Assembly (NCBI GenBank): GCA_018606645.1 | Contig: JAGVRI010000003.1 | Location: 27,322-91,321, forward strand | Source: Chloroflexota bacterium | Lineage (GTDB): Bacteria > Chloroflexota > Anaerolineae > JAAYZQ01 | DNA length: 64,000 nucleotides | Direction: 5' to 3' | Shown here: positions 30,031 through 55,430 of the stretch, one piece after another | Layout: each line of letters opens with the position of its first letter | How positions within the stretch are numbered: the first letter of the stretch is position 1 | Translations under genes and position numbers: made by a program | Notes under the pieces: model-generated | Databases searched by the model: none | What the model was told of the DNA's origin: nothing | Seen by the model: the letters and a program-made list of their open reading frames with translations, nothing else

Positions 30031-30131
30031 CGGTACAATCGAACTATTGGCAACATGGGCCATTTCTGCTATACTTGCACTGGAGCAAGTTCGTCTTCGG
30101 GAAGCCGGTTTCGTGGAAAAGATGGCCAGAG

Positions 30132-31796
30132 ATGCAGAAGACAAGACCCCAGTTGTTGTCCCGTGCTAGGTCTGAAGATGGCTCTATCCTGACCTGGTCC
30201 GTCCTCTTGATCTTCTTCCTTGCCCTGGCTCTCCGCTGGCTGTACGTCCAGGTGGTGGTCTTTCCTCCCCTGGATGATCCCGCGTTCTACCTGACCACGG
30301 CCCAAAACCTGGTGGCCGGACGCGGCCTGGAAATAGATGCTCTATGGAGCTATCAGGTCCCGTTTGAGGGGGTCACCCATCCCAGCCACGAGCACTGGAT
30401 GCCGCTGACCACCGGGTTGATGGCGGTCGCTCTCGCGATCCAGCGGTTGCTGGGGGGAGCATCCCAGAGCCCCTTGCGCGCCGGTCAGATGCCGGGGTGG
30501 ATCATGGGCGCCCTGCTGGTGCCGCTGACCTATTGGGTGGGCCGGTGGGCTCTTCCGGCAAGAGCGGGCAGCCGCCAGGTTGCGCTGGGCGCGGCCCTCC
30601 TGGTCGCGGCGAACGCGACCTTGAGTTACCAGGCGGCCAGCGCGGATAGCAGCGCGCCCTTTGCCCTGCTGGGGGCTGGGGTGCTGGCCGCCGCCGGGCG
30701 GAAATCCGGGACAGGAGGGGGGTTTTTGAGCATCGGCCTGCTGATCGGCCTTGCCTACCTGACCCGCGCCGACGGCCTGCTATTCCTTCTGGCCGTACCG
30801 CTGGCTTGGTGGCTTGGACCCCGGCCGGCCTGGAACGGTCGGCCTGGGGAAAGCTCGCCGGAGGTCGGCCAAGGCAGACGCAGACCCGGTCTGGTCGGCA
30901 TGGTGGATATGGGAGCAGGCTTTTTCCTGGTCGTCATCCCGTGGTTGGTGCGGAATTACCTGGCTTTTGGCACGCCGCTCCCCAGCTCGGTGCTCCACCA
31001 GGCATGGTTAACCGACTATCTGGACACCTTTAACTATCTCACCCACCCGACCTGGCGGAGCTGGATGGCTCAGGGCTGGGTCGAGAGCCTGGCCCAGCGG
31101 GGCCAGGCTCTTCTCCACAACGGGAAGGTGTTTCTGGTCAGCACGTTCCCGTGGGGGGTGCTGGCTCTACCGGGCTTGTGGTGGCTCCGCCGGGAGCCGG
31201 CCTTCTTCCCTTCTCTGGTCTACAGCCTGCTCCTGTACCTGGTGATGGCGCTTGCCTTTCCTGTATCCTCGATGTCCGGGACGTTCTACCATTCCTTGGG
31301 AGCGGTGACTCCCTTTTGGGCCTTGAGTGCGGTTTATGCGGTACAGGTGGCTGCTGAGCGGTTCGGGAAGAGCCGCGATCCGCGCTTGATCGGCCCGACC
31401 CGGACGGCACTGGTGGTGGGGTTGGCGGTGCTGAGCGGGGCGCAGGCGGCCCTGGCCTTGCCCACGGTCGCAGCTCGCCATCGGGCGGAAAAGGAGCAGT
31501 ATGAAGCGATAGCCCGGTGGCTGGCCGATCATGCCGCTCCGGGCGACGTGGTGATGACCACACAGCCCTACACCCTGCATTACGCCAGCGGCCATCCGTG
31601 TATCGTTCTGCCGGGCAATGAATCGCCTGAGGCCGCATGGCAGGCCGCGCAACGGTATGGCGCCCGGTACCTGGTCATCACCCAGACCTTCGGACAGTAT
31701 CCTCGCATCCTGCACGATCGGCCGGATCCGCGTTTTCTGCCGCTTGTTGCCACCGACGACGCCGAGATCTATGCCATCCAGGGAGAGACCCCGTGA
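30132..31796 (+). CDS. GT-C fold polytopic membrane glycosyltransferase-like protein
   Basis: Paralog of 31793-33406 gene (shared motifs HPxxEHWMPL, VRNYLAFGTPLP, ARYLVI); ATG 30132 chosen, TTG at 30027 possible. Confidence 0.6.
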   Translation: MQKTRPQLLSRARSEDGSILTWSVLLIFFLALALRWLYVQVVVFPPLDDPAFYLTTAQNLVAGRGLEIDALWSYQVPFEGVTHPSHEHWMPLTTGLMAVALAIQRLLGGASQSPLRAGQMPGWIMGALLVPLTYWVGRWALPARAGSRQVALGAALLVAANATLSYQAASADSSAPFALLGAGVLAAAGRKSGTGGGFLSIGLLIGLAYLTRADGLLFLLAVPLAWWLGPRPAWNGRPGESSPEVGQGRRRPGLVGMVDMGAGFFLVVIPWLVRNYLAFGTPLPSSVLHQAWLTDYLDTFNYLTHPTWRSWMAQGWVESLAQRGQALLHNGKVFLVSTFPWGVLALPGLWWLRREPAFFPSLVYSLLLYLVMALAFPVSSMSGTFYHSLGAVTPFWALSAVYAVQVAAERFGKSRDPRLIGPTRTALVVGLAVLSGAQAALALPTVAARHRAEKEQYEAIARWLADHAAPGDVVMTTQPYTLHYASGHPCIVLPGNESPEAAWQAAQRYGARYLVITQTFGQYPRILHDRPDPRFLPLVATDDAEIYAIQGETP

Positions 31797-33406
31797 AGTG
31801 GCCGCCTCCCCTTCGCCCTGATCTCAAACACCTGGCATGGCCACTGGCTGTGCTGATCCTGTCCCTTGTGGTTCGTCTGCTCACGGCCTGGCCGCTGGGC
31901 CAGCCCGGCTATACCGATGCCTATTACTATGCCGTCGGGGCGCGACAACTATATGGCGGTCAGGGGTTCAGCGAGCCGTTTGTCTGGAACTACCTCAGCC
32001 CGCCCGAGCGCGTCCCCCACCCCGGCTACGAGTACTGGATGCCGCTGGCCGCCATGCTGGGCTGGCTGGGGCTGGCCCTGGGCGGCGATTCCTTCCGCGC
32101 CCTCCAGGCGCCGTTCCTCGTGCTGGCTGCTGTGCTGCCGGTCATCGCCTATGGGGTGGCCTGGGACCTGACCGGCAAGCGAAAGCATGCGCTGCTGGCG
32201 GGAGGGCTGGCGGTTTTCCCCGGCTTCTATGCCCACGTCCTGGTCCTGCCCGACACCTTTGCCCCGTTTGCGGTGGTCGGCAGCGCCTGCCTGTGGGCCA
32301 CGGGTCGAGGTCTGCGCAGCGGTCGGGCGCGGTGGTTCGGGGCAGCCGGGCTGGCCGCCGGGCTGGCCCATCTAGCACGGGCCGATGGGATGCTGTTGGC
32401 CGGGGTGGTCCTGCTGGCGGCAGTGGCTCAGCGTCCCCGGTCTGGCAGCCGGTGGGGCGGAGGCTGGTGGACTCGAGCGGTCAGCCTGGCGATGACCGTG
32501 GCCGGCTATCTGGCGGTGATGGGCCCGTGGTTCCTCCGCAACTGGCGGACCTTTGGCACGCCGCTGCCTGGGTCCGGGATGTCCACGCTCTTCCTGACGT
32601 CGTATGACGACATGTTCGCCTATGGCCGGCGCCTGACATGGTCCACCTACCTGAGCTGGGGCTGGGAGCCGGTCCTGCGGTCCAAGGCGGAGGCGCTGTG
32701 GATCAACCTGCAGCGCCTGTGGGTGGAGAACCTGCTCGTCTTTCTGCTGCCGTTCGCTGCCCTGGGGCTGTGGCGGCTGCGCCGGGACCGCCGGCTGTGG
32801 CCCTTCCTTCTCTATCTGCCGCTCTTGTTTGGGGCGATGACCATCGCCTTCACGTTTCCAGGGATGCGAGGCGGACTCTACCATTCGGGCGGGGCGCTGC
32901 TGCCCTTCTTTTTTGCGGCAGCGGGACCGGGATTGGAGGCGGCGCTCCAGGCGGCGGCGCGGCGGTTCCGGGGATGGCAGACAAAGACGGCATGGACGGT
33001 GTTTGCCGTCGGGTTCGTGGGGTTGGCGGCGCTGGTGACGCTCCTGGCGCTGGCGCGGGCGGGAGTGCTGACCGGGGAGTGGAACGAGCGGGACCGCGGC
33101 TATGCGGAGATTGGGGATTGGCTGGCGGGGCAGGGGGCAACCGGCGCGGTGGTGATGGTCGGCGACGCGCCGGGTTTTAGCTGGCACACCGGTCATCCGG
33201 CGGTTGCCGTGCCGAACGAGCCGCTGGAGGTCATCCTGGCGGTGGCAGACCGATACAGCGCGCGCTATCTGGTCCTGGATGCCAAACGTCCCCGCACGAC
33301 CGATGCCCTGTACGAAGGGCGGGCCGGGCATTCGCGGCTGGTGCTGCGGTGCACGGTGAGTCGCCAAGATCAGCGTTGGCAAGTGTATGAGGTCCGGGAG
33401 CCCTGA
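31793..33406 (+). CDS. GT-C fold polytopic membrane glycosyltransferase-like protein
   Basis: GTG start overlapping upstream stop (gtga); motifs HPGYEYWMPL, LRNWRTFGTPLP, ARYLVL shared with upstream paralog. Confidence 0.6.
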   Translation: MKWPPPLRPDLKHLAWPLAVLILSLVVRLLTAWPLGQPGYTDAYYYAVGARQLYGGQGFSEPFVWNYLSPPERVPHPGYEYWMPLAAMLGWLGLALGGDSFRALQAPFLVLAAVLPVIAYGVAWDLTGKRKHALLAGGLAVFPGFYAHVLVLPDTFAPFAVVGSACLWATGRGLRSGRARWFGAAGLAAGLAHLARADGMLLAGVVLLAAVAQRPRSGSRWGGGWWTRAVSLAMTVAGYLAVMGPWFLRNWRTFGTPLPGSGMSTLFLTSYDDMFAYGRRLTWSTYLSWGWEPVLRSKAEALWINLQRLWVENLLVFLLPFAALGLWRLRRDRRLWPFLLYLPLLFGAMTIAFTFPGMRGGLYHSGGALLPFFFAAAGPGLEAALQAAARRFRGWQTKTAWTVFAVGFVGLAALVTLLALARAGVLTGEWNERDRGYAEIGDWLAGQGATGAVVMVGDAPGFSWHTGHPAVAVPNEPLEVILAVADRYSARYLVLDAKRPRTTDALYEGRAGHSRLVLRCTVSRQDQRWQVYEVREP

Positions 33407-33430
33407 CAGGGGCACTGCACGGAGGGCCCA

Positions 33431-35038
33431 GTGAAACAGGCTGAGAAGGGTTGGACGCATCAGTGGCTGGTGATGGGGATGGTGGCCCTGTTGAGCACGG
33501 GTCTCTACCCGCTCTACTCCTATCTCGGCGGCCATCTCGGCTTTCCGCTGGACGACGCCTGGATCCACCAGACCTACGCCCGCAATCTGGCCCAGACCGG
33601 ACAGCTTGCCTATCGGCCCGGTCAGCCTAGCGCCGGGTCCACCTCGCCAGCGTGGAGTTTCCTTCTTTCCCTGGCCTACCTGGTCGGTCTGGACTACCGC
33701 TTATGGGCCTACCTATTGGGCGGGCTGGCGTTGGCCGCCAGCGCCTGGCTCACCCGCCGCCTCTTTCTGCGTCTGGCTCCCCGGCGCCCCCAGGCCGCCC
33801 TGTGGACCGGGCTCCTGGTTGCCACGGAGTGGCACCTGGTCTGGGCTGCGGCGTCGGGCATGGAAACGATGCTCTTTACCGCGCTGTCGCTGGCGCTCCT
33901 GGATTATTTCTGGGGCTACGCGGCCGGGCCGTCCGCCGCTACCGGACCGGTCAGTCTCCAGACGGAGCGGACGATGGTCAGCGCCGTCGGCATCGGCTTG
34001 CTGGGCGGGCTGCTGGTGGTCACCCGACCGGAAGGACTGGGATTGGCGGCGTTGGTGGCCGTCGCATTTCTGGTGGTTCCAGGTCCTACCGGCCGCAAGA
34101 TGACCAGGACGCGCTTCCTGGCGGCCGGGGCGTTGCTGGCGGCCTTTGGGCTGATTGCGGGGCCCTATGTGGCCTTTAACCTGAGGACGGCGGGAGCGGT
34201 CTTTCCCACGACCTTCTATGCGAAACAGACCGAATATCAGATCTCCCTTGCGCTGCCGGTCCGTTTCTGGCAGGTACTGAGCCCCACCTTGGTCGGCGCT
34301 CAGGTGCTGCTCCTGCCCGGCCTGGGCTATGGGCTCTATCGGCTGCTGCGCCACATCCTTTCTCATCGGAACGCTGCTCATGGTGAGCCCAAGCGCTTGG
34401 AAATCGTGCCGGCGCTCTTGCCGCTGGGATGGTGGGCGGCGCTGCTCGTCGTCTACACCCTGCGTTTGCCGGTCGCGTACCAGCATGGCCGCTATGTCAT
34501 GCCCACCATCCCGCTGCTCCTCCTCTACGGTTCCTGGGGCACGGCCGAGTTGCTGCGCCCACGCTCTTCTCAGCCGTGGCAGCGCGTGCTCAGTCGAAGC
34601 GTGCTTGCGGCCCTGATCCTGCTGGTGGGGTGGTTCTGGGGACGGGGGGCGATCGCCTACCGCGATGAAGTGGGCTTTATTGAGGGGGAGATGGTGGCCG
34701 TTGCCGAATGGCTGAATGAGCATACAGACCCCGGAGACTGGATCGCGGTGCATGACATTGGCGCCATCGGATATTTTGCCGATCGCCCGCTTCTGGACCT
34801 GGCCGGATTGATCAGTCCGGAGGTGATCCCGTTCATGACCGATGCAGAGAGGCTGATGAACTGGATCGCCGAGCGGGGGGCCAGGTATCTCGTCTTTTTC
34901 CCTGACTTTTCGACCACCTATCGCCGGCTTTCGACGGATCCCAGGCTCCAGGTGGTCTATTGCACCGACCATGCCTGGACGCGGCAGCAGGGACATGAGA
35001 ATATGTGCGTGTACCGCCTTACGAGTATCGTTCCGTGA
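33431..35038 (+). CDS. GT-C fold polytopic membrane glycosyltransferase-like protein
   Basis: Loop motif FPLDDAWIHQTYARN, many TM segments, C-terminal soluble domain ending ARYLVFFPD shared with paralogs. Confidence 0.6.
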   Translation: MKQAEKGWTHQWLVMGMVALLSTGLYPLYSYLGGHLGFPLDDAWIHQTYARNLAQTGQLAYRPGQPSAGSTSPAWSFLLSLAYLVGLDYRLWAYLLGGLALAASAWLTRRLFLRLAPRRPQAALWTGLLVATEWHLVWAAASGMETMLFTALSLALLDYFWGYAAGPSAATGPVSLQTERTMVSAVGIGLLGGLLVVTRPEGLGLAALVAVAFLVVPGPTGRKMTRTRFLAAGALLAAFGLIAGPYVAFNLRTAGAVFPTTFYAKQTEYQISLALPVRFWQVLSPTLVGAQVLLLPGLGYGLYRLLRHILSHRNAAHGEPKRLEIVPALLPLGWWAALLVVYTLRLPVAYQHGRYVMPTIPLLLLYGSWGTAELLRPRSSQPWQRVLSRSVLAALILLVGWFWGRGAIAYRDEVGFIEGEMVAVAEWLNEHTDPGDWIAVHDIGAIGYFADRPLLDLAGLISPEVIPFMTDAERLMNWIAERGARYLVFFPDFSTTYRRLSTDPRLQVVYCTDHAWTRQQGHENMCVYRLTSIVP

Positions 35039-37770: not shown

Positions 37771-37979
37771 CGCTAGTACCAAGAGGCTATTGTCAACCGG
37801 GTAAATTCACCGTATACTAGAAACCGATGGCAGACAGAAGGTGGACGGCGAAGCGATTTGGAATGTCGGAGCAGGAATTGCGCCCTTGCCTGGCGCAGAG
37901 GTTGAGCGGGATGGCCCGTAGCCTCCCAGGATGTCCAGCCGTGGCTCGTGGTGGGCAGGGCCGTTGGAAGGTCGGGCCT

Positions 37980-38101
37980 GGGGCGAGGCATTCCGGGGAA
38001 CGGCGTATAAGGGCAGGTGGTTCTGGCCCATCCGCGGCGATTCAAACGGTAGGCGGCCACTGGGAATGCCTCGCCCCTACAATGTCAGAGAATGCAACAG
38101 C
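37980..38101 (+). repeat. ~120-bp repeat family B, copy 2
   Basis: ggggcgaggcattccgggg...ttctggcccatccgcggcgattcaaacggtagg...gggaatgcctcgcccctac...gagaatgcaacagc; same orientation as copy 1. Confidence 0.7.
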
Positions 38102-38567
38102 CCTACCTGGTGGGAAGAGGCCCTGGCGTGAGCATCCGCTTTGGGAGGAGGGGCAGAGCCTGCTGGAAATGTCGGTGGGTCTGGTGTTCCTGCTGGGGAT
38201 CGTGCTGGTCCTGTTTGAGGGAGCATTGCTGTTTCACTCCTACATTGCCTTGCTGAATGCAGCGCGAGAAGGGGCAGTGTATGCCTCTCTCCATCCGACC
38301 ATGAGTCCGGGGACATCCGAGTATGCGCAATATGAATCGGTCACGCGCACCGAAGCAACAGCCGCCGGGTTGCTGACCGATCCGGCGTACTTTCAGATCG
38401 ACCCGCCCCAGACGCCGGAGGGCACCGACCCGTTGGATCCGATTATCGTGACGGTCCATTATCAGTTGATCAATCCGATGCAAGGCCTTATCCTTCCTTT
38501 CTTTGGACGGATGGGCTTGTTCGATAGTGTATGGATGACGGCGGCTACGGAGATGCCGATCCGGTGA
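38082..38567 (+). CDS. TadE-like pilus assembly protein (pseudopilin)
   Basis: N-terminus EEGQSLLEMSVGLVFLLGIVLVLFEG matches TadE/TadF GQxxVEFAL motif; long ORF extension back to 37827 runs through repeat B and is rejected. Confidence 0.65.
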   Translation: MSENATALPGGKRPWREHPLWEEGQSLLEMSVGLVFLLGIVLVLFEGALLFHSYIALLNAAREGAVYASLHPTMSPGTSEYAQYESVTRTEATAAGLLTDPAYFQIDPPQTPEGTDPLDPIIVTVHYQLINPMQGLILPFFGRMGLFDSVWMTAATEMPIR

Positions 38568-38625
38568 ACGGCCGGGGAGTAGAGAGTAGATGCGAATTCT
38601 TGTCTTGAGGCAGCGCGACAGCCGG

Positions 38626-39063
38626 ATGGTTGGCCAGGAAGGCCAGGCGATGACCGAATTTGCGCTTTCGATGACGTTGTTGGTCGCCCTGCTGGTGGGG
38701 ATTATCGCCCTGGCCTGGGTCGGCTTTTGTTATGTGAGCATCACCAGCGCGGCGCGCATGGGAACGCGGCACATGATCACCTATCCGACCAGCCCCCAGG
38801 ATCCGCACCGCTTTGCCAATGTGGATGCGGAGATCACCTATGTGGTCACCAGTTCGATGCCGATGCTGGACTGGCGCCAGGCGACGATCATCATCCTGCC
38901 CCAACCGCCGGCCAGTCGGCTCTCAGGCACCCAGGTCTCGGTCCAGATCGTGTATCCGATGAATACGCCGACGATCCGAATCCCGTATGGGTTGAGGGAG
39001 GGATCTTTCGTGCTGTTACCGCCGATTACGCTGAATGCCACATCGCGGATGCGGCTGGATTGA
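38626..39063 (+). CDS. TadE-like pilus assembly protein (pseudopilin)
   Basis: GQEGQAMTEFALSMTLLVALLVGIIAL; alternative start 38590. Confidence 0.65.
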   Translation: MVGQEGQAMTEFALSMTLLVALLVGIIALAWVGFCYVSITSAARMGTRHMITYPTSPQDPHRFANVDAEITYVVTSSMPMLDWRQATIIILPQPPASRLSGTQVSVQIVYPMNTPTIRIPYGLREGSFVLLPPITLNATSRMRLD

Positions 39064-39126: not shown

Positions 39127-40200
39127 ATGTCTCATCGAGAAAAAGAAAGTGGTCAGTCAATTGTAATCATTGCGTTTGCCATCATGATGCTTTTGGCGCT
39201 GGTGGCGATCGTCGTGGATGTGGGCAATGCCTATGCCCACCGCCGGATGGTGCAAAATGCGGTGGACGCGGCTGCCCTGGCCGGGGCGCGGAAACTGGCC
39301 GACCGGATGGTGGCGAGTAACCCGGACAGCGTGAAACATATCCACGTGTCCTATCAGATCAGGCGCTATGCGCAAGAGAACGGCCTGCCGGTGAGCGAAC
39401 CCGGCATCCTCCAGGCGTGGTTCATTGACAAGAACGGGAATCGGCTCGAACAGGTGCGGCCCAGCCCGGATTTCATCAATCCCCAGGCCAGAGGGGTTGA
39501 GGTCATTGGCAAGCTGCCCTTTACGACCTATTTTGCCCACCTGCTTGGTTTCTCGACGATGGAGGCGGCTACCTCCGCCCGCGCCTGGGTGCTGCGCGGT
39601 CCCTGCAATGGGGATAGTCTGTTCCCGGTAGGGATCGCTCAGAGTATCTTTGGAGGCGGTGGCGTTCCTCAACCTGGGACAACCTACACCATGTGGGACA
39701 AGACCAAGGAGGCGCCCGGTCAATTCGGCTGGCTGTACTGGAAGGACGGGAACGGTGTGGTGCGGGGAACCGAGCCGCCGCAGCAGAACTCGAACACGAC
39801 CAATCTGGCGGCAAACATCCTGGACACCTCACGCAGCGGTGCGTGGCGGGTGAATGATTGGGTGCACGGCAGCAGCGGCGTCAGCTTCCAGCCGGTCCTG
39901 GATGAGCTGGAACAGAGGATGGGTTCTTCCCACACCGTCATCGTCCCGATCTACGATCAGGTTTCGGGAACGGGGGACAACGCCGTGTACCGAATCGTGG
40001 GCTTTGGCGCCTTTCAGATGACCTGCGCCTATAGCTCAAAGAGCCATTATGTGGAAAATCCGAGTGGGTCGTGCGCTCCTTGTCGGGAGGAAGACAAACC
40101 GTGCATCCGAGGGACGTTCGTGCGGATGATCGAACCGAGCGGCGACGATGGGTGCCTGGACACCGGCGTCGTCATCCCTTCGTTCCGGATGCCCAAATAG
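39127..40200 (+). CDS. TadG-like / Tad_N-domain pilus assembly protein
   Basis: N-terminus ESGQSIVIIAFAIMMLLALVAIVVDVGNAYAHRRMVQNAVDAAALAGA typical of putative Tad-like Flp pilus-assembly (PF13400); RBS GGAGGTG. Confidence 0.7.
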   Translation: MSHREKESGQSIVIIAFAIMMLLALVAIVVDVGNAYAHRRMVQNAVDAAALAGARKLADRMVASNPDSVKHIHVSYQIRRYAQENGLPVSEPGILQAWFIDKNGNRLEQVRPSPDFINPQARGVEVIGKLPFTTYFAHLLGFSTMEAATSARAWVLRGPCNGDSLFPVGIAQSIFGGGGVPQPGTTYTMWDKTKEAPGQFGWLYWKDGNGVVRGTEPPQQNSNTTNLAANILDTSRSGAWRVNDWVHGSSGVSFQPVLDELEQRMGSSHTVIVPIYDQVSGTGDNAVYRIVGFGAFQMTCAYSSKSHYVENPSGSCAPCREEDKPCIRGTFVRMIEPSGDDGCLDTGVVIPSFRMPK

Positions 40201-40215
40201 CCCTTTCTCGATGAT

Positions 40216-40251
40216 CCTGAGCGAGGGCGGGCGTTCCCCCCCTCGCTCAGG
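40216..40251. repeat. perfect 12-bp stem / 12-nt loop hairpin after TadG-like gene
   Basis: cctgagcgaggg-cgggcgttcccc-ccctcgctcagg; no downstream T-run. Confidence 0.5.
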
Positions 40252-40420
40252 ACCTGGGCCAACCGGCCGCGGGCATGAATCCGCATCCTCATGCTCCCGC
40301 GGTCAAATCACAAACCAGGCAATGGCCAGGAAAAGTGTTCCGCCGTACCCCCTGGCGCGATCAGGAAGGAAGCTGAAACCCATGCAAGCGACTGTCAACT
40401 GCCCGAGGAGAAGAAACCCG

Positions 40421-43400
40421 ATGTTCCGGTCTCTGCTGCTCGCCGTGCCCCTGGGACTTCTGGGAGTGCTTGTCTTTGTCCTCTCCTCCAACGCGTACGT
40501 CACCCAGAAGGGCGAGACCACGCTGGTGGATTTCGATAGCGGCACCTTTATCTACACCGGGTTGCTGGATATCCCCGAGCAGGGGATCGATAGTGTGCAG
40601 TTGCTGCCCATCGGATTGACCGGGGACTGGGAGGTGGCCAATCGGTCGTTGCCGCTTCGGCTGACGGACCATGCCGTGGTTGCGCACGGGGACGCCATCT
40701 ATGTGGTCGGTGGCACTGACGAGGAGTATGCCGTCCATGATGAGGTATTCATGACCCAAATGTCCCTGGACGGACAGCTCTCCCCCTGGCAATCCCAGAA
40801 CCCACTGCCGGACCCTCGCTCTGCCGCCGCGATCGCGACCTACCGATTGGACGCGGACAATTCATTCCTGTATGTGCTCGGAGGAATCGGATCTGACTTT
40901 GGTGCCACCGACACGGTATACTATGCGCCCATCAATGATGAGACGGGAGAGCTCGGGGCCTGGCAACTGGACAGTCAAAGCCTCCCCAATCCGGTCTACT
41001 ATGCGGCTGCGGTCGAGCATGATGGCGCCCTGTATGTCATCGGCGGGGCGGGTGATACCGTCTTTGATCAGGTGTACTATGCGACGGTCCAGGAGGATGG
41101 TTCATTGGGTTCGTTCATCGCCACCTCCTCGCTTCCCGAACCGCTGTACGACGGTCTGGCCATCGTCTATGAGGGGGAGCCGGTCGATACGCTGTACTAT
41201 ATCGGCGGTCGGAACGCCATTACCTCTACTTTCAAGGTCTATTTTGCCGACTTTGTGCCCGGTGGAGGCTTGAGCGCCTGGCAACTTTCTCAAGGCAATC
41301 TGCCGGGTCACCTCTTTGGCCACGACGGCACCTTGCTGAGCGGGGAGATCATCCTCACTGGGGGGATTGTGGATTCCATCAATCCATACGTCGGCATTTC
41401 CAACACCGTGGAAGCGGCTCTGGTGGATCCTGGCAACCCGGCATTTCGCCTGTACGACTGGTGCCTGGGGGTGCCGCCTCCGACCTGTACCATCGGCGCC
41501 TGGCAAACCGGGAGTCTACTCCCGGACGTGCGCGCCCGTCATGGCATGGCCTCCGGCCACGGGCATCTCTACGTCCTGGGTGGAGTGGATTCCACCCAAT
41601 ACCCACGAGATACCATCTATGTGGGTTCTGTCACCGGCTTTGGCGCGCGCTACTCGCCGGAGGGGTATTACATTTCTGACCCGATTGACCTGGGGCCGGG
41701 GGTGGCCCTTCGGCGGCTGAGTTGGGGGACGACCATTCACGATCCTGCTCACATGGGGCTGGAGATGCAGTTCCGCCACACCAGCGACGGTCAAATCTGG
41801 TCCGAGTGGTCCACACCCATTCCTTCCATCAGCGGCACGAACCAGATTGACCTGGATCCGCCACTGACCGGGGTCCACTATCTCCAGTATCGGGCCCACC
41901 TGACCACGACTGTCTCCCATGCGTCTCCGCTCCTGGATTGGGTGGAGATCTACTATGAGGTTCCGGATCCAGAGGTTGCGGTGTATAAGGACACCGGTGG
42001 GGTGATGACCGTGACTCTGGGCGACCACCTGGAATATACCATCTACTACACCAACTATGGCGGGTGGACGGCCGAGAATGTGGTCCTCACCGAGACCCTG
42101 CCGGCGCACACGAGCTACGTAGGAGGGTCAGGTTGGCATCAGGTGGCCGGTACCAATATGTATACCTATGACGTCGGCAACCTGGCGCCCGGAGCGAGCG
42201 GCAGCGTTCCCTTCCCGATCAAGGTGAATGACGACGTGCCTCTCGAGACCCGGTATCTCACCAATACCATCGAAATCGCCTACCCTCCCATGCTCGACGC
42301 GCTGGCGGAGTGGGTGACCGATCCGGAACCGGGCAATAATACCTTTGCGCTGGCGACCCGCTTTAGCCCGTATGCGATCACCGTTGCCAAAGACTCGGAG
42401 CCACCGCCGGGCGAACCGGTCGCTCCCGGCGAGATCATCACCTATATCCTGACCTACTCCAACCCGGTGGGAGCGGTCAGCGTTCCGCAGGCCTACCTCC
42501 TCGATGCGCTCCCGGAGCATGTCAGCTATATTCCGGGCTCCATCTTTGGGCCCGGGGCGGACGCCAGCAACCCACGAGAGCTCCGCTGGGACCTCGGCGT
42601 CGTCGGACCTGGGGAGACGTATCAGGTGGGCTATGCGGTCCAGGTGGATTCCTCGACTCCGTTGGGAACTGTCCTGTCGAATACGGCCACCCTGTACAGC
42701 GATATCGGTCCTCCCAGGACGAGCAATTGCGTCGAGACTCTGGTCGTGGACAAGACGTACCGGGTAGAGGTCAACAAGGAGGCGGTGCCCTCTCCGGGGA
42801 GCACCGTGGCTCCTGGCTCGCTGATCCACTACACTCTGTATTACACCAACGCCGGCTTTATCGCGGCCAGCCAGGCGGTGTTGACCGAGGTCTTTGATCT
42901 GAACCAGAGCTACTCGCTGGTGTCGGCCGATCCGCCGCCGGACGTGATGCCCAATGTCTGGCACCTGGGCGCGCTGGGACCTGGCCAGAAGGGGGCGATT
43001 GACCTGGTGGTCCAGCTCGACGACGTGTTGCCCAGTCACTGGATCGTCAGCAACCAGGCCGTGATCGATAGCCCGGAAGGGGTGCCATCGTATACTCCGG
43101 TCATCACGCACCTGGTCATGAATCCACCGGAGGTCCCCCTGGTTGATCTGGTGGTGGGGAAGGTGCGCATGGAGCCTGCTGAACCCAAGCCGGGCGAACC
43201 GGTGGCGTTCTACGTAACGATCTCCAACACAGGCAACCTGAACGCCAGCGGCTATTTCTGGGTGGAGTTGTACGTCAAGTCTGCGCCCTCGGAACCTCCC
43301 CGTGGGCCCTCTGACCATGATCAGGGGTACTGCCTGAACGGGTGCTCGATCGTGCGCCCGTACCATCTGGTGCTGGTCAACAGTCTGGGGAAGGGGGCGA

Positions 43401-43621
43401 AGAAGGAGATCAAGTTCGCAAACGAGAAGTTGTTCTTCCCCACGGAGGGCGCCTATGATGTGTATGTGCAGGTGGACGTGGCCTTTGACGATCCACGTTA
43501 CAGCCCATATTGGGGCTTTTATCCGGAACACCATGAAGGCAACAACATCGTCCACGAAACGGTGTTCATTGGCGGGGTACCGCGATACTATTTGCCCGCG
43601 GTGTACAAGCGGTGGCCATAG
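40421..43621 (+). CDS. large secreted/anchored protein with Kelch-like beta-propeller and multiple DUF11 domains (candidate pilus-associated adhesin)
   Basis: 1066 aa; signal/anchor MFRSLLLAVPLGLLGVLVFVL; repeated ...YVxGG... blades (AIYVVGG, FLYVLGG, ALYVIGG, LYYIGG, LYVLGG), then several DUF11-type repeats (GDxLEYTIYYTNxG..., GEIITYILTYSN, GSLIHYTLYYTNAG); RBS GAGGAG. Confidence 0.7.
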   Translation: MFRSLLLAVPLGLLGVLVFVLSSNAYVTQKGETTLVDFDSGTFIYTGLLDIPEQGIDSVQLLPIGLTGDWEVANRSLPLRLTDHAVVAHGDAIYVVGGTDEEYAVHDEVFMTQMSLDGQLSPWQSQNPLPDPRSAAAIATYRLDADNSFLYVLGGIGSDFGATDTVYYAPINDETGELGAWQLDSQSLPNPVYYAAAVEHDGALYVIGGAGDTVFDQVYYATVQEDGSLGSFIATSSLPEPLYDGLAIVYEGEPVDTLYYIGGRNAITSTFKVYFADFVPGGGLSAWQLSQGNLPGHLFGHDGTLLSGEIILTGGIVDSINPYVGISNTVEAALVDPGNPAFRLYDWCLGVPPPTCTIGAWQTGSLLPDVRARHGMASGHGHLYVLGGVDSTQYPRDTIYVGSVTGFGARYSPEGYYISDPIDLGPGVALRRLSWGTTIHDPAHMGLEMQFRHTSDGQIWSEWSTPIPSISGTNQIDLDPPLTGVHYLQYRAHLTTTVSHASPLLDWVEIYYEVPDPEVAVYKDTGGVMTVTLGDHLEYTIYYTNYGGWTAENVVLTETLPAHTSYVGGSGWHQVAGTNMYTYDVGNLAPGASGSVPFPIKVNDDVPLETRYLTNTIEIAYPPMLDALAEWVTDPEPGNNTFALATRFSPYAITVAKDSEPPPGEPVAPGEIITYILTYSNPVGAVSVPQAYLLDALPEHVSYIPGSIFGPGADASNPRELRWDLGVVGPGETYQVGYAVQVDSSTPLGTVLSNTATLYSDIGPPRTSNCVETLVVDKTYRVEVNKEAVPSPGSTVAPGSLIHYTLYYTNAGFIAASQAVLTEVFDLNQSYSLVSADPPPDVMPNVWHLGALGPGQKGAIDLVVQLDDVLPSHWIVSNQAVIDSPEGVPSYTPVITHLVMNPPEVPLVDLVVGKVRMEPAEPKPGEPVAFYVTISNTGNLNASGYFWVELYVKSAPSEPPRGPSDHDQGYCLNGCSIVRPYHLVLVNSLGKGAKKEIKFANEKLFFPTEGAYDVYVQVDVAFDDPRYSPYWGFYPEHHEGNNIVHETVFIGGVPRYYLPAVYKRWP

Positions 43622-46255: not shown

Positions 46256-47644
46256 ATGTCGTTATTAAGACGGATTGAGAGGAACCAGCAGGTGGCGGTG
46301 GATCAACTGACACCCGTGGCAGAGCATTCCACCCGGTTGGAGGAATTGCGCATTCGTCGTGCACCGGCTGCGCCGGCGCGGGATGCCTTTCAGGACTTGA
46401 AGAGTCGGATCCATAACAAGCTGCTGGCTGAACTCGACCCCAAAATGGATGTCTCCAAGACGGATGAAGTGCGCCAGACGATCGAAGAGATGTATGATGC
46501 GATGCTGGCGCAGGAGAATCTGATCCTGGGTCGAGCGGACCGCCAGCGTCTGTTAGAGCAGATTGTGGCCGAGATCCTGGGCTATGGTCCCATCGAGCCG
46601 TTGCTGGCCGATGATACGATCACTGAGATCATGGTGAACGGACCCAACGCCGTCTATATTGAACGAGCCGGACGGATCGAGCCCACCGACATCCGATTCG
46701 AAAACGATGAGCATGTGTTGCGGATCATTGACCGGATTGTCTCACCGTTGGGACGCCGGATTGATGAAAGCCAGCCGTATGTGGATGCGCGTCTGCCGGA
46801 TGGTTCGCGGGTCAATGCGGTCATTCCACCTCTATCGCTGATCGGCCCGGTGTTGACCATCCGCAAATTTGCTCGGATCCCGATCACGGCCCAGACGCTG
46901 ATTGAGCTGGGGACGATTACCCCGGAGGCCCTCGAGTTCTGCAAGGCTTGCGTCCAGGCCAAGCTCAATATGGTGATCTCCGGAGGCACTGGCTCCGGAA
47001 AGACGACCACGCTGAACGTCTTTTCTGCCTTTATTCCTAATGACGAACGGATCATCACCATCGAAAATGCGGCGGAGCTTCAGCTCCAGCAAGATCACGT
47101 CATCCCGCTGGAAACGCGGCCGCCCAACGTCGAAGGCAAGGGTGAGATCACCATGCGGCAGCTCGTGATTAACAGTCTGCGGATGCGCCCGGATCGGATC
47201 ATTGTCGGGGAATGCCGGGGGGCGGAGGCCCTGGACATGTTGCAGGCCATGAATACGGGCCACGACGGGAGCATGACCACAGCTCACTCGAACAGTCCAC
47301 GCGATACGCTGGCCCGTCTGGAAACGATGGTGTTGATGGCCGGCATGGACCTGCCGTTGCGAGCGATCCGCGAACAGATCGCTTCCGCGCTGCACCTGGT
47401 TGTGCATCAGGAGCGGATGCGCGATGGAAGCCGCAAGATCACCAAGATCACCGAGGTCCAGGGGATGGAAGGCGACGTGATCGTCATGCAGGACATTTTC
47501 ACCTTTGAGCAGCAAGGGATCGAGGGGGGGAAGGTGATCGGCCGGCTCAAGCCCACCGGAATTCGCCCCAAATTTATGGAGATCATCGAGGCGGCCAATA
47601 TCCACCTGCCGCCTACGATCTTTGGCATGGGAAGACGGTACTAA
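46256..47644 (+). CDS. cpaF: Tad secretion ATPase CpaF/TadA
   Basis: Walker [11 protein letters not shown]2SS/T4SS ATPase motifs ([18 protein letters not shown]). Confidence 0.9.
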
Positions 47645-47659
47645 CAGGGTAATCCGAGG

Positions 47660-48634
47660 ATGGGGTCCTTACAACCTTTGATGAATCCGGTCGTATTGGC
47701 CCTACTGGCGGCAGTCGCTGTGTTCCTGCTCTTCGCCGGCCTCCACTGGATTGGAATGGCCCGCGAGCAGGCGGTTGAGGAGCGGCTGGATCGGTACGGC
47801 GGTCGCGCGGAGGAGGAGAAGAAAAAGCCCAAGCGGGAAAAGCGGCGGGCTGCTGTCGAGGGCATCGAGGAGATTGTATCGCGCCGGAGCTTTGCCGCCG
47901 GTGTGCGGGAGGACCTGGCCCAGGCCGATCTGAAACTGCGCGTGGCCGAATATCTGGGACTGATCGCGCTGAGCACGTTCGTTTTCTTTTTGGTGGCTCG
48001 CTGGATCTTTGACTCGGTCCTGCTGGGCCTGGTGTTCGGCGTCGTCGGCTTTTTCGCGCCGCGCTTTTATGTGGACCTGCGCAAGAGACGTCGTCTAAAC
48101 GCCTTCAATGACCAGTTGGGAGACTGTATCACCCTGTTGGCCAATTCCCTCCGTTCGGGCTTTAGCATCGTCCAGTCCATGGATACGGTGGCTCAGCAGT
48201 TGCCCAATCCGATCGCGGCCGAGTTCCGCCGCGTCACCCAGGAAATCGGACTCGGACTCCACTACGAAGAGGCCCTCAACAACATGCTGCGGCGCGTTCC
48301 CAGTGAAGACCTGGACCTGATGATCACCGCCATCAACATTCAGGGCAAGGTGGGCGGCAACCTGGCCGAGATCCTGGACACCATCGGACATACCATCCGC
48401 GAGCGGGTGCGGATCAAGGGGGAGATCCGGGTCCTTACCGCCCAACAGATGATTTCGGGGTACATTCTCACCGGCTTGCCGGTTGCTCTGGGGTTGGTGT
48501 TATATCTGATCAACAAGACCTACATCAGCCGCATGTTCAGTGAGCCGTGTGGATGGATCATGCTCGGTGTGGCGTTCAGCATGCTGGTCTTTGGCTTTCT
48601 GGCCATCCGCAAGATCGTCAGCATCGAGGTGTAG
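47660..48634 (+). CDS. tadB: Tad inner-membrane platform protein TadB
   Basis: T2SSF domain, TM segments N- and C-terminal. Confidence 0.8.
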   Translation: MGSLQPLMNPVVLALLAAVAVFLLFAGLHWIGMAREQAVEERLDRYGGRAEEEKKKPKREKRRAAVEGIEEIVSRRSFAAGVREDLAQADLKLRVAEYLGLIALSTFVFFLVARWIFDSVLLGLVFGVVGFFAPRFYVDLRKRRRLNAFNDQLGDCITLLANSLRSGFSIVQSMDTVAQQLPNPIAAEFRRVTQEIGLGLHYEEALNNMLRRVPSEDLDLMITAINIQGKVGGNLAEILDTIGHTIRERVRIKGEIRVLTAQQMISGYILTGLPVALGLVLYLINKTYISRMFSEPCGWIMLGVAFSMLVFGFLAIRKIVSIEV

Positions 48635-48697
48635 CATGAGGTCCACCAATGGGCGGCTGGAAGGGATTGAGCCTGTGACGAGATTGGGAGAGAACTG

Positions 48698-49630
48698 ATG
48701 CCCCCAGTCATAATGTTCGGCATTGCCTTTATGGTGTTCCTGTCTCTCATGCTCATCATCGTGGGCATTGCTTCTCCACGGCCCGCCGATCAGGTGGAAA
48801 GCCGGTTGATGGAGTACGGGAGCCGGCCGATGACGCTGGAAGAGATCGAGCTGGCTCAACCGTTCAGCCAACGGGTCCTTATCCCGATGGTCCGGGCCAG
48901 CGCAGAATTTGTGTCTCGTTTCACTCCGCAACACAGCCTGGAAGCGACGCGCCACAAGCTGGATCTGGCCGGCAACCCCAACAATTGGAGCGCCACCGAT
49001 TTCTTGGGCATTCGCGGCCTGGCTGCGTTTGTGTTAGGGGCCCTTACCTTTGTGTTGACGATGCTGGCCAACACGGCATTTACCCAGCGCCTGCTGTTCA
49101 CGGGGGTCATGGGGCTGCTGGGCTTTTTTCTACCCGTGATCTGGTTGGGGCGACGGATCCGAAGCCGTCAAGCGGAGATTGTCAAGACTCTGCCGGATGC
49201 GCTGGACCTGCTCACCATCAGTGTGGAGGCGGGTCTGCCGTTCGATGGGGCGATGCAACGGGTTGCCGAGAAATGGGATAATGAGATCAGCAAAGCGTTT
49301 CGGCGCCTGCTCGCCGAGATGCGCATGGGCAAGTCCCGCCGTGAGGCCCTCCGGGATATGGCCGACCGGATGGACGTGCCGGATGTGACCAGCTTTGTGG
49401 CCGCGTTGATTCAGGCCGATCAACTGGGTATCAGTATTGCCAAGATCCTGCGCATCCAGTCCGAGCAGATGCGGATCAAGCGCCGTCAGCGGGCTGAGGA
49501 AAAGGCGCAGCAGGCGCCGATCAAGATGCTCATCCCGATGACGTTTCTGATCTTTCCGACCATTCTGATCGTCATCCTGGGACCAGCGATCCTGATTCTC
49601 AAGAATTCGCCTATCTTCCGGGTGATGTGA
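48698..49630 (+). CDS. tadC: Tad inner-membrane platform protein TadC
   Basis: T2SSF domain; paralogous to TadB. Confidence 0.8.
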   Translation: MPPVIMFGIAFMVFLSLMLIIVGIASPRPADQVESRLMEYGSRPMTLEEIELAQPFSQRVLIPMVRASAEFVSRFTPQHSLEATRHKLDLAGNPNNWSATDFLGIRGLAAFVLGALTFVLTMLANTAFTQRLLFTGVMGLLGFFLPVIWLGRRIRSRQAEIVKTLPDALDLLTISVEAGLPFDGAMQRVAEKWDNEISKAFRRLLAEMRMGKSRREALRDMADRMDVPDVTSFVAALIQADQLGISIAKILRIQSEQMRIKRRQRAEEKAQQAPIKMLIPMTFLIFPTILIVILGPAILILKNSPIFRVM

Positions 49631-52601: not shown

Positions 52602-55430
52602 ATGGCTCATAGTTCCTGGCGGCGGCAATTCCTGACCGTTCTGGTCTACAGCATCCTGGCGCTGGCTCTCACCTGGCCGCTTGTCAGCCGGTTCACCGAT
52701 CATGTGCCGGGTAACGGGGTGGACGATCCGCCGCTGACCTGGAACCTGTGGTGGGTTCGTCATGCCCTGCTGGAGTTGGGCGTTGATCCGTTTGACTGCG
52801 CCTACCTGTTCTATCCGATCGGCATCAACCTGGCGTTTTACACCCTCACCATTCTGAACAGCTTGCTCTCCATTCCCTGGCAGGCGGTTTGGGGCCTGGT
52901 GCCGGCCAGCAATCTGTTACTTCTGTCTTCCTTTGTGCTGAGTGGGTATGGAGCCTTTCTTCTGGGATGGTATTGTTTAGGAAGAGGCAGGGCACAGGCC
53001 CCGGACGAACCCCTCACGCCTTTGAAAATAGACCGCGCCCCTCGCGCAGGAGTCGAGGCTTCAGCCGGTCCACCGCCTGAAGGCTCCACTCCCCCAGCCG
53101 GAGTCGAGGCCTCCGCCGCCAACCTCGATATTTTCATCCGTCGTGGCGCCCCACCGGGCATGGCTACTCCCTCCAGAATGTTTCTGGCGGCGTTTGTGGC
53201 CGGTCTTCTCTATGCCTTTGCCTCATGCAAAATGGCCTATGCGGCGCTGGGGCAATGGAATATCGCCAGTTCTCAATGGATCCCGTTTTATGTGCTCTAT
53301 TTGTTCAGAATGGGGGAATGCCCAGGCCGATGGCGCTATCTCCTTCTGGCGGCGCTCTTTTTATGGTTTCAGGCCTATGCGGAGCTGACCTATGCTTCGT
53401 TCCTGGTGCTCTTTACCGCAGGATGGGGGCTGTGGCGACTGCTCATTTGCCTTCGAGAGCGGAACGTACGACAGGCCAAGCGTCTAATCGGCAAGCTGGC
53501 TGTTCTTGCACTGTTGACTGTCGGAGGGCTGATCCCGGTCCTGGTCCGGATGATCCCGGACATGGTGCAGGAAGGGCGGTTTCTGGTCGAAGGCGAAGGC
53601 TTTGCCGACGTCTTCTCTGCGGACCTGTTGGGGTTCTGGGTGCCGACCATGTATCACCCGGTGCTGGGGTCATGGGTGGAGCGGTTCCGTTTTGATTACA
53701 GTGTGGGGCAACATATCTATGTGGGGTATGCGGTGCTGGCGCTGGTTCTGGTGGCCGGCGTCCGCTGTTGGCGCAGGCCCGGAGTGCGCTTTTGGTTTGC
53801 GTCGGCGTGTGTGTTCTGGGTGTTGACGTTCGGTCCTTCGCTCCGGATCAATGGTCAGAGCACCGGGCTGCCGATGCCGTTTGTCTGGATTGCGCGGCTG
53901 CCCTTCTTTGAGGGGAATCGGTATCCAAGCCGTTACAGCGTGCTCTTGATGCTCAGCCTGGCTATGTTGGTGGCTTTTGGGTTGAGTGAGCTTCTTCGCC
54001 GTCGGGGTGGGCGCTTTCGCGCCGTCCCTTGGACCGTCTCCTGGTTGTTGATCCTGCTGCTTCTGGGCGAGCACCTCTCGATTCCACTTCCGTTGTCCGA
54101 TATGCGGGTGCCGGCCGTGTATGACAAGATCGCCGGGGAGTACCCTGGCGACTGGGCGCTGTTGGACCTGCCGGTGGCCTGGCGGAATGGTTTTCGCGTG
54201 ACCGGGACGCAGCATCCGGTGATCATGTTTGAACAGTACTATCAATCCGCCCACGGCAAACGGCTCCTGGGAGGCAATACGTCGCGCAATCCCCCTTTCA
54301 AATTCCAGTATTTTACGGAAGCGCCGGTGATCAACACCCTGATCGCCCTGGAAACCGGGCATGAGGTGGACCCTGAGGTCGTGAAGCGTGACCGATCTCT
54401 GGCTCCGGAGGTGCTGCGATTTTTCAATATCGAGGCGGTGGTAGTTCATACGGATCAGACCGGACCGGATGTCATCCCGTACATTCAGGCGACCCTGCCC
54501 GTTCGGGCCATCTACGAGCAAGCGGGGATCGTCGCGTACCGGGCCGAGCTGCCGCCATGGCCCTCGACCTGGGATATCCGGCCGGGCGATGCGTTGTCAC
54601 GATTGAGCCTCGGCGAAGGTTGGGGGGCGCCGACCGACGATCTGGTCTGGGCCCAACGGCGCACGGTTCGACTGCTCGTGCCGCTGCGGGGTGGGCGCCA
54701 ACGGATGACCTTCCGCATGTATAGCCCGGAAGGTGGATCCTATCTCCGGGTGGAGGCGAATGGACAATTGGTGGTCCGCCTTCCCTTGAAGTCAGGGTGG
54801 GCTGACTATGAGTTGGAGATCCCGGGCGATCGAGTCGATGCCGGATTGAATGAGTTTCGGCTCCGCTTTGAGAAACTCTATCCCACGGAGGAGATCCGGC
54901 TCTCACCACGCTCGGTTGGCGCAACCGGGGTCGAGTCGCCGGTCAACCTGGTGGTGCAAAGCGCCGGGCAAGAGGTGGGGGATTTGGCTTATCTGTACGT
55001 CAACGGCAGACAGGTTTCGCCCAACCAGCGGGGGTACAACCTGGTGGTGGTGAATGCGGAGAATGGTACGGTGGAACAGGTAGTCAGCTTTGACACCCAT
55101 CTCAACGAAAGGGCCAGCGCAGAGCTGGCTGCTGTTCTGAACCAGGTGTCGCCTGGCCGGATCGTGGCGGTCGCGGTCGCTGATGAGGCGTCACGGCTGC
55201 TGGGTGAGGAGGCAGTGAACGCCCTGCGCCGTATCGGAGCGACGGAGGACCTGCGAGGCCGATTCCGGTGGGGGCAGGCGATCATCGGGGTACAGGGCGC
55301 AGCGCCCGGTACGGCTCTGGAAGCGGCGGATTGGATGCGCCCAGTCACACTGGTGGTGGGCGAGGGGGCCACCGAACCGCAGCTCGCGGCCGCTTTTGCC
55401 TGGATCCGGTTCACGGCGGTTCCAGAGTAG
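52602..55430 (+). CDS. large polytopic membrane protein (GT-C/YfhO-like N-domain) with C-terminal ILEI/PANDER-like domain
   Basis: 942 aa; many TM segments; C-terminal GYNLVVVNAENGTVEQVVSFDTH...GRIVAVAVADEAS...IGATEDLRGRFRWGQ matches FAM3/ILEI pattern; contains an in-frame family A repeat at 53049-53092. Confidence 0.6.
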   Translation: MAHSSWRRQFLTVLVYSILALALTWPLVSRFTDHVPGNGVDDPPLTWNLWWVRHALLELGVDPFDCAYLFYPIGINLAFYTLTILNSLLSIPWQAVWGLVPASNLLLLSSFVLSGYGAFLLGWYCLGRGRAQAPDEPLTPLKIDRAPRAGVEASAGPPPEGSTPPAGVEASAANLDIFIRRGAPPGMATPSRMFLAAFVAGLLYAFASCKMAYAALGQWNIASSQWIPFYVLYLFRMGECPGRWRYLLLAALFLWFQAYAELTYASFLVLFTAGWGLWRLLICLRERNVRQAKRLIGKLAVLALLTVGGLIPVLVRMIPDMVQEGRFLVEGEGFADVFSADLLGFWVPTMYHPVLGSWVERFRFDYSVGQHIYVGYAVLALVLVAGVRCWRRPGVRFWFASACVFWVLTFGPSLRINGQSTGLPMPFVWIARLPFFEGNRYPSRYSVLLMLSLAMLVAFGLSELLRRRGGRFRAVPWTVSWLLILLLLGEHLSIPLPLSDMRVPAVYDKIAGEYPGDWALLDLPVAWRNGFRVTGTQHPVIMFEQYYQSAHGKRLLGGNTSRNPPFKFQYFTEAPVINTLIALETGHEVDPEVVKRDRSLAPEVLRFFNIEAVVVHTDQTGPDVIPYIQATLPVRAIYEQAGIVAYRAELPPWPSTWDIRPGDALSRLSLGEGWGAPTDDLVWAQRRTVRLLVPLRGGRQRMTFRMYSPEGGSYLRVEANGQLVVRLPLKSGWADYELEIPGDRVDAGLNEFRLRFEKLYPTEEIRLSPRSVGATGVESPVNLVVQSAGQEVGDLAYLYVNGRQVSPNQRGYNLVVVNAENGTVEQVVSFDTHLNERASAELAAVLNQVSPGRIVAVAVADEASRLLGEEAVNALRRIGATEDLRGRFRWGQAIIGVQGAAPGTALEAADWMRPVTLVVGEGATEPQLAAAFAWIRFTAVPE
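53049..53117. repeat. family A 44-bp palindromic element (compact copy 3, reverse orientation) plus adjacent half copy, inside CDS
   Basis: ggagtcgaggcttcagccggtccaccgcctgaaggctccactcc = reverse complement of copies 1/2 with 1 substitution; translated in frame as AGVEASAGPPPEGSTPPAGVEASA. Confidence 0.8.

Follow-up and report, generated by a model that had tools for sequence, protein, structure and literature searches.

The DNA considered here is a stretch of 64,000 nucleotides from a member of the Anaerolineae (Chloroflexota bacterium, assembly GCA_018606645.1, contig JAGVRI010000003.1, positions 27,322 to 91,321 of the forward strand), which at its full length is called the window. It carries a gene for a protein of 942 amino acids in which a polytopic membrane body with the fold of GT-C glycosyltransferases, a soluble alpha/beta domain, a beta-sandwich resembling carbohydrate-binding modules (CBMs) of family CBM35 and an ILEI/PANDER domain follow each other in this order (Table 1). 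A sequence-only reading of the window, made without database searches, had already described this open reading frame (ORF), with exactly these boundaries, as a fusion of a membrane domain with an ILEI domain, and the architecture is confirmed. The AlphaFold model of the whole protein has a predicted local distance difference test score (pLDDT) of 79.5 and a predicted template modelling score (pTM) of 0.74.

Table 1. Position in the window of the GT-C/ILEI gene, of its parts and of the genes of a separate glycosylation-type cluster
Feature	Position	Strand	Remarks
GT-C/ILEI gene	52602–55430	+	uninterrupted ORF, 942 codons plus TAG stop, complete
Polytopic membrane domain, GT-C fold	52602–54089	+	amino acids 1–496; 11 transmembrane helices proposed, N-terminus inside, C-terminus outside
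D41-D42, candidate catalytic "modified DxD"	52722–52727	+	first extracytoplasmic loop, motif H-V-P-G-N-G-V-D-D-P-P-L-T-W-N-L-W-W
Lineage-specific in-frame insertion	53022–53171	+	150 nucleotides, 50 amino acids, Pro/Ala/Gly-rich; loop between transmembrane helices 2 and 3
Imperfect direct repeat in the insertion	53046–53118	+	22 nucleotides, 86% identical, 51 nucleotides apart; encodes AGVEASA twice
Soluble alpha/beta domain	54090–54551	+	amino acids ~497–650, after the last transmembrane helix; from the secondary structure of the model
Beta-sandwich like CBM35/CBM6/CBM36 carbohydrate-binding modules	54552–54911	+	amino acids ~651–770
ILEI/PANDER (FAM3, GG-type lectin) domain	54924–55427	+	structural extent, amino acids ~775–942
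PF15711 match within the ILEI domain	55029–55301	+	amino acids 810–900
R810	55029–55031	+	aligns with sugar-binding R129 of POMGnT1; in 53/53 sequences
D861	55182–55184	+	aligns with sugar-binding D179 of POMGnT1; in 53/53 sequences
R889	55266–55268	+	aligns with sugar-binding R207 of POMGnT1; in 53/53 sequences
Soluble GT2 protein	25618–26376	+	252 amino acids; start of the cluster 25618–35038
Membrane protein	26325–27932	+	535 amino acids, without family match
PMT_2 GT-C protein	27907–30030	+	707 amino acids
Membrane protein	30027–31796	+	589 amino acids
Membrane protein	33431–35038	+	535 amino acids, PLDDAW after the first transmembrane helix

The gene is a real and conserved gene of uncultured Anaerolineae. 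A search of a large protein collection yielded more than 1000 significant homologs, of which the top 120 are each 848–973 amino acids long, align with 71–100% of the query and without exception (120/120) carry a precomputed match to PF15711. Named source organisms among these 120 are Anaerolineae or Chloroflexota, and some homologs go in NCBI by the name "interleukin-like EMT inducer domain-containing protein." Species-representative genomes were scanned as well and gave 31 loci, all of them in metagenome-assembled genomes of uncultured Anaerolineae/Chloroflexota. A gene fusion or an assembly artefact can be ruled out because the same architecture recurs in 44 divergent representatives of the family (see below) and in 31 genomes.

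The C-terminal domain genuinely belongs to the ILEI/FAM3 type, which is also known from human POMGNT1. PF15711 is the sole Pfam match of the protein (E = 7.8e-17, 62 bits versus a cutoff of 27; an NCBIfam scan of the 942 amino acids gave no match), and since it is significant and extends over profile positions 1–90 of 90, the ILEI/PANDER assignment made from the letters alone is borne out. The same Pfam family is matched by all 53 aligned relatives; conservation counts given here and below refer to this alignment of 53 family members, which are ~60% identical overall. Searched with phmmer against the PDB sequences, the protein finds the POMGnT1 stem domain and TMEM2, and the profile of the 53-member family finds the same two at E = 2e-9 and 3e-9 and FAM3B at 1e-8. 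The query domain has the three-layer beta-beta-alpha fold known from FAM3B, FAM3C and the stem of POMGnT1.

Carbohydrate binding by ILEI-type domains is documented for POMGnT1 and for FAM3C/FAM3A (PMC9802357); the sequence-only reading had invoked it also for TMEM2 and CEMIP, for which the statement was overstated or incomplete. In POMGnT1's stem domain the sugar-binding residues are R129, D179 and R207 (PMC9802357), and the residues aligned with them here, R810, D861 and R889, are invariant (Table 1). This mapping was taken from the phmmer alignment to 5ggj_A, with chain position 40 taken to be E126 on the basis of how long the chains in 5ggj and 5ggf are. Among representatives at 50% identity, equivalents of R810, D861 and R889 are found in 60, 63 and 59, respectively, of 75 GT-C-linked ILEI domains, and in bacterial proteins with tandem ILEI domains in 28, 27 and 23 of 32 domains. 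Because the sugar-binding triad of POMGnT1 is invariant in the family, a glycan-binding role of the tail, as proposed before, is plausible, and its conservation is good indirect evidence that the ILEI tail may act as a lectin. What had been overlooked in that proposal is a second lectin-like module, namely the CBM35-like sandwich, so that the tail would probably expose two outward-facing sugar-binding modules.

The membrane body is not matched by any Pfam family at E ≤ 10 or by any NCBIfam model in the query, and the family's body as such has no model in either database. At the level of the fold the picture is clear: Foldseek matches the model to AftD, AftA, PglB, DPY19, AglB, ArnT and Pmt4, and all significant matches to membrane proteins are to GT-C glycosyltransferases, which upholds the GT-C fold named by the sequence-only reading. 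Judged from the predicted model, the GT-C relationship is visible at this level only. The label "YfhO-like," which had been attached to the same domain, is not supported: the query does not match YfhO (PF09586) at E ≤ 10, and 7 of the 53 relatives match it below threshold (best E 0.0029); a Pfam scan of the relatives' membrane bodies returned sub-threshold hits to YfhO and DUF6541 and nothing else. Taken jointly, the GT-C fold and the ILEI identity are held with high confidence.

For the body a topology of 11 transmembrane helices, with the N-terminus inside and the C-terminus outside, is proposed, in which loop 1, the loop 319–367 and the entire soluble tail would lie outside. The positive-inside rule is followed family-wide by every proposed cytoplasmic loop, and loop 1 and the loop 319–367 on the proposed outer face have net charges of −3.6 and −6.2, respectively. 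Directly after the first transmembrane helix comes the motif HVPGNGVDDPPLTWNLWW, which contains D41-D42. Both aspartates are kept in 52 of 52 sequences that cover the position, and the first of them is kept even in ILEI-less relatives of other lineages, which have VDE, FDA or GDS at this place. GT-C enzymes usually have a DxD or a modified DxD motif in an extracellular loop (PMC8035078), and D41-D42 is probably such a modified DxD motif with a role in catalysis. Further invariant residues of the body are K210, E261, D341, H352, H371, N439-R440-Y441 and R444. That D41, D42 and so many charged and polar residues are invariant at an overall identity of ~60% speaks for enzymatic activity and against a scaffold.

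In the soluble part, the alpha/beta domain that follows the last transmembrane helix has invariant residues of its own, including W527, R528, R532, H551, N559, R562, N563 and E584, and may by analogy function like the periplasmic domains of GT-C enzymes. The sandwich behind it, like the ILEI domain, presumably binds carbohydrate.

The in-frame repeat insertion noticed from the letters does exist, 150 nucleotides with a 22-nucleotide repeat, and has no visible link to lectin or catalytic function. Its boundaries are ambiguous by ~6 nucleotides because Thr-Pro codons flank both ends, and Tandem Repeats Finder, run on the gene, reported neither an array nor the 22-nucleotide repeat. The reference for the insertion is protein P0001 of locus L001, which is ~95% identical elsewhere and lacks the 50 residues in both the protein and the DNA alignment; they are absent also from the other 51 aligned relatives. 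In the model the insertion falls in a disordered stretch, with a pLDDT below 50 for residues 135–188. The loop between transmembrane helices 2 and 3, which is proposed to be cytoplasmic, is the most length-variable of the family (mean 22.8 amino acids versus 67 in the query). Most likely the insertion is a neutral low-complexity expansion of a tolerant, probably cytoplasmic loop.

How the ILEI domain is distributed in the family was seen from an exhaustive profile search over 1.84 billion representatives. It gave 14,859 matches at E ≤ 1e-3, with 2,371 reaching E ≤ 1e-30, and the best 150 were classified with separate profiles for the body and for ILEI. A complete body together with ILEI is present in 44 of these 150; in 29 the body is complete and the protein (687–826 amino acids) ends 1–70 residues past the sandwich without ILEI; 6 have no body and consist of 5–6 tandem ILEI domains; 71 are fragments. 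With 29 of the best 150 ending naturally without ILEI as compared with 44 that have it, ILEI is a C-terminal add-on that members of a much larger GT-C family may have or lack. This had escaped the sequence-only reading, as had the fact that the domain is widespread in bacteria and phages. Two of the ILEI-less relatives have a second large gene. In L034 (3801–6059) it encodes a 752-amino-acid membrane protein with HSDDE after the first transmembrane helix, and in L036 (3731–5899) a protein of 722 amino acids with a PA14 lectin-type domain and a Gly-rich N-terminus that is not membrane-like. That the two are paralogs with swapped lectin modules was considered and rejected, neither of them matching the family profile.

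In bacteria ILEI is already well established as a domain, and in phages, too, it is common. The bacterial tandem-ILEI proteins (P0226, P0230, P0231, P0252, P0265, and P0267) have 900–2400 amino acids, 5–6 domains and Pfam scores of 400–450 bits; one of them is from the cyanobacterium Microcoleus (WP_333377365.1) and is annotated in NCBI as an ILEI-domain protein, and P0265 shows in addition a weak PI-PLC-X match. Viral proteins with the fold include receptor-binding and tail-fibre proteins from phages of Bacillus, Lactobacillus and Dickeya, as well as giant-virus proteins, one of which is annotated as a glycosyltransferase. Tal proteins of streptococcal phages have a CBM that resembles the POMGnT1 stem and has conserved Arg and Asp (PMC9437275). 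A literature search for bacterial or Chloroflexi ILEI proteins found no description.

In the window the gene is located downstream of a divergent folC (folylpolyglutamate synthase), and so it is in every relative of at least 50% identity whose flanks are long enough. In most of these loci a co-directional efp follows, the order in the main clade being folC, gene, efp. A functional link to the adjacent gene for elongation factor P (EF-P) was considered and rejected because EF-P is modified in the cytoplasm, whereas the conserved face of the enzyme and its tail are predicted to be outside the cell. Relatives at 41–46% identity are found at other loci. In one distant clade the gene comes after the aroK-aroB shikimate operon, which is equally uninformative on function, and in another directly after the gene for a highly conserved protein of 379 amino acids (4875–6014 in L017, with equivalents in L020, L021, L023, L024, and L030), which overlaps the start of the GT-C-ILEI gene. 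This protein is 86–88% identical between loci, has in Pfam a weak match to GNAT and nothing in NCBIfam, and could be a functional partner. A GT2 glycosyltransferase gene is located upstream in L017 and L023, and in L017 also a gene for an NAD-dependent sugar epimerase/dehydratase; all are co-directional, an arrangement that recalls the ArnC/ArnT or GtrB/Gtr logic.

The window itself has a GT2 gene, at the start of a separate glycosylation-type cluster (Table 1), whose product is closest to polyprenyl-phosphate sugar synthases (PpgS, AglJ, Dol-P-hexose transferase, and ArnC); because of this gene the organism can probably make lipid-linked sugar donors. The families found in the cluster by Pfam and NCBIfam are PMT_2 and LIC_10190 only. 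Paralogy of the GT-C/ILEI protein with the other GT-C-like membrane proteins of the window (26325–35038) was considered, and none is detectable. Within the cluster, at 31837–33180 (+), ORFs of 256 and 180 amino acids have a guanine-plus-cytosine (GC) content at third positions of 0.53–0.56 versus ~0.75 in their neighbours, at a high overall GC of 0.69, so that the real gene is maybe in another frame or on the other strand; the 256-amino-acid ORF has no Pfam match. Elsewhere in the window, a protein of 1157 amino acids with a Kelch beta-propeller, DUF11, DUF7927, and CARDB (40148–43621, +) is probably a large surface protein; TadE-like genes lie upstream of it (37827–39063) and genes for a pilus of the Tad or type II secretion system type downstream (~46256–49630, by synteny with L001). 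An ordinary hybrid sensor kinase of 991 amino acids with several PAS and GAF domains, a HisKA/HATPase core and a C-terminal receiver (5922–8897, −) is unrelated to the finding.

Domain identities and folds, motif conservation, the conserved architecture and the optionality of ILEI are established. From these we consider it fairly probable that the gene encodes a GT-C glycosyltransferase of the cell envelope, which uses a polyprenyl-phosphate-linked sugar as donor and an envelope component as acceptor and has a tail that holds on to glycans. The membrane body with its 11 helices would bind the lipid-linked sugar in the outer leaflet, and D41-D42 together with the outer-face invariants D341, H352, N439-R440-Y441 and R444 would catalyse its transfer to an acceptor outside the cytoplasmic membrane. 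The CBM35-like sandwich and the ILEI domain with its intact Arg-Asp-Arg triad would bind a glycan, either that of the acceptor or the one made by the enzyme itself, and by holding the enzyme on its substrate the tail would favour repeated or clustered glycosylation, much as is thought for the POMGnT1 stem domain and for CBMs in mycobacterial AftD and Emb. The topology, catalytic competence, the use of a lipid-linked donor, sugar binding by the tail and the effect on processivity are presumed in this mechanism. The donor could be supplied by GT2 enzymes such as those encoded next to the gene in L017 and L023 and at 25618–26376 of the window. The role proposed for the tail fits with what is seen among prokaryotes and their viruses, where ILEI is established as a binder of surface glycans and its fold recurs in phage receptor-binding and tail-fibre proteins (PMC9437275). 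Candidate acceptors are a wall polysaccharide, a lipoglycan or a surface protein, a fold search being unable to separate polysaccharide-acting from protein-acting GT-C enzymes.

Several points weigh against this assignment. A sequence link to any characterised GT-C family was not found with Pfam, NCBIfam or the profile search of the PDB, in which the family profile retrieved ILEI proteins only and no solved GT-C; the catalytic function therefore rests on the fold and on motif conservation. The genomic context is mostly uninformative, folC and efp being housekeeping neighbours that give no clue to glycan chemistry. A GT2 neighbour is present at two loci only (L017 and L023), no GtrA-type flippase is found among the small ORFs of the window, and the linkage of GT2, GtrA and GT-C is absent from the gene's own locus (folC, gene, efp), although partners may be encoded elsewhere in the genome. 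Of the GT-C-linked ILEI domains in divergent representatives, ~20% have lost at least one residue of the triad, so that sugar binding is not shared by the whole family. The proposed outer loop 409–446 is net positive, which is the weakest point of the topology: possibly the loop contains phosphate-binding arginines, or the topology is wrong there. And the model is of low confidence in places, including part of loop 1 (residues 67–81) and residues 528–567.

The main rival explanation is that the enzyme glycosylates proteins, i.e., that it is an O-glycosyltransferase of the PMT type or an N-oligosaccharyltransferase of the STT3/PglB/AglB type acting on secreted or S-layer proteins, with ILEI reading the glycans already attached and thus clustering the modification. 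PglB, AglB and Pmt4 are indeed among the fold matches, but the polysaccharide-acting AftA (19.4) and AftD (18.4) score about equally in the fold search. Moreover, the oligosaccharyltransferase signature WWDxG, which belongs to the soluble C-terminal domain of such enzymes, is absent from all 53 relatives (0/53), the query does not even have a WWD, neither the query nor any of the 53 has a Pfam match to PMT, PMT_2 or MIR, and a CBM35-like module is more typical for the recognition of polysaccharides. We therefore regard a protein glycosyltransferase as unlikely, though it deserves to be kept in mind.

That the body is an inactive GT-C-like scaffold, the protein then serving as a lectin or sensor, anchored in the membrane, by which glycans of the surface (for example of the sheath or S-layer, or exopolysaccharide) are tethered or organised with no sugar being transferred, would agree with the missing sequence match to any active GT-C, with the two lectin-type modules that make up much of the extracellular part, and with the free-standing tandem-ILEI proteins of bacteria, from which it is evident that ILEI can work without an enzyme. 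However, the strongest conservation of the family is in the membrane body and its outer loops (D41-D42, D341, H352, H371, N439-R444), which is not expected for a mere anchor, and the 29 ILEI-less relatives keep the whole body, which indicates that the body carries the core function. A scaffold is, accordingly, quite improbable. Highly improbable is also that ILEI serves protein-protein contacts, either by recruiting an envelope enzyme, as the POMGnT1 stem does with fukutin (FKTN) (PMC8478517), or by oligomerisation, as in the FAM3C dimer (PDB 5lc4), since the invariant residues are exactly those of the sugar-binding triad and in phage receptor-binding proteins this fold has been interpreted as a module for carbohydrate binding; both roles are, however, compatible.

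A cell-envelope glycosyltransferase with a glycan-holding tail would not overturn anything: GT-C enzymes with a carbohydrate-binding tail are an established design, and databases already flag ILEI in these proteins. What is new is the combination, i.e., an unnamed GT-C family, ILEI as one of two lectin modules, the conserved triad, and versions with and without ILEI; a literature search found no description of GT-C combined with ILEI. Anaerolineae are abundant in sludge, sediments and soils, and their cell envelopes are almost unstudied. The one syntenic position in the main clade and the thousands of family representatives make it likely that the GT-C/ILEI family is a core envelope-glycosylation enzyme of these organisms. 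The naturally occurring enzymes with and without ILEI allow the effect of a lectin tail on processivity to be tested in a GT-C, and a bacterial ILEI domain with an intact triad, which can probably be expressed alone, could help to define the ligands of ILEI/FAM3 domains. A bolder and tentative idea, which may be right but which we would not expect to be, is that a bacterial GT-C has independently recruited the ILEI lectin known from POMGnT1 and with it reads its own beta-linked product, whereby glycosylation would extend along, or cluster on, a polymer or protein of the surface. If true, two unrelated glycosyltransferase folds would have found a convergent solution in the reading of the product, and, taken together with the cyanobacterial tandem-ILEI and the phage ILEI domains, this would suggest that the "cytokine-like" FAM3/ILEI domain of animals began as a surface-glycan-binding module of prokaryotes.

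Of the known systems, the mycobacterial arabinofuranosyltransferases AftD, AftA and EmbA/B/C come close in design: a GT-C body with an acidic motif in loop 1 is followed by extracytoplasmic domains that include CBM-type beta-sandwiches, which are thought to hold the acceptor polysaccharide, and AftD and AftA are among the top structural matches of the query. They differ from it in that there is no detectable sequence similarity, that they have no ILEI domain, and that the query has ~11 transmembrane helices versus 16 in AftD; arabinan chemistry of the mycobacterial kind is not expected in Anaerolineae. With the systems composed of a GT2 enzyme, a flippase and a GT-C, in which synthesis of a lipid-phosphate sugar in the cytoplasm is followed by flipping and by transfer on the outside through the GT-C, the protein shares the predicted route, whereas a paired GT2 or GtrA is lacking at its own locus. 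YfhO is the Pfam family most often touched by the relatives of the query, and in large YfhO proteins, too, there may be extracellular domains that bind carbohydrate (PMC8035078). In PMT1/2/4 (GT39) the MIR domain is inserted in a luminal loop, whereas here the CBM35-like and ILEI modules are C-terminal, and there is no match to PMT or PMT_2. The ILEI-like CBMs of phages and the tandem-ILEI proteins have the same ILEI fold and keep the Arg and Asp residues that bind sugar, but they are not joined to a membrane enzyme, ILEI standing in tandem arrays or on fibre tips. In POMGnT1, finally, whose stem, like the FAM3 proteins, is only 26–29% identical in sequence to the query domain, ILEI stands N-terminal to its catalytic partner, a soluble Golgi enzyme that depends on UDP-sugars, whereas here the partner is a polytopic GT-C and ILEI is C-terminal; because both the type of partner and the position of ILEI differ, the pairing of ILEI with a glycosyltransferase in the Anaerolineae looks independent of that in POMGnT1.

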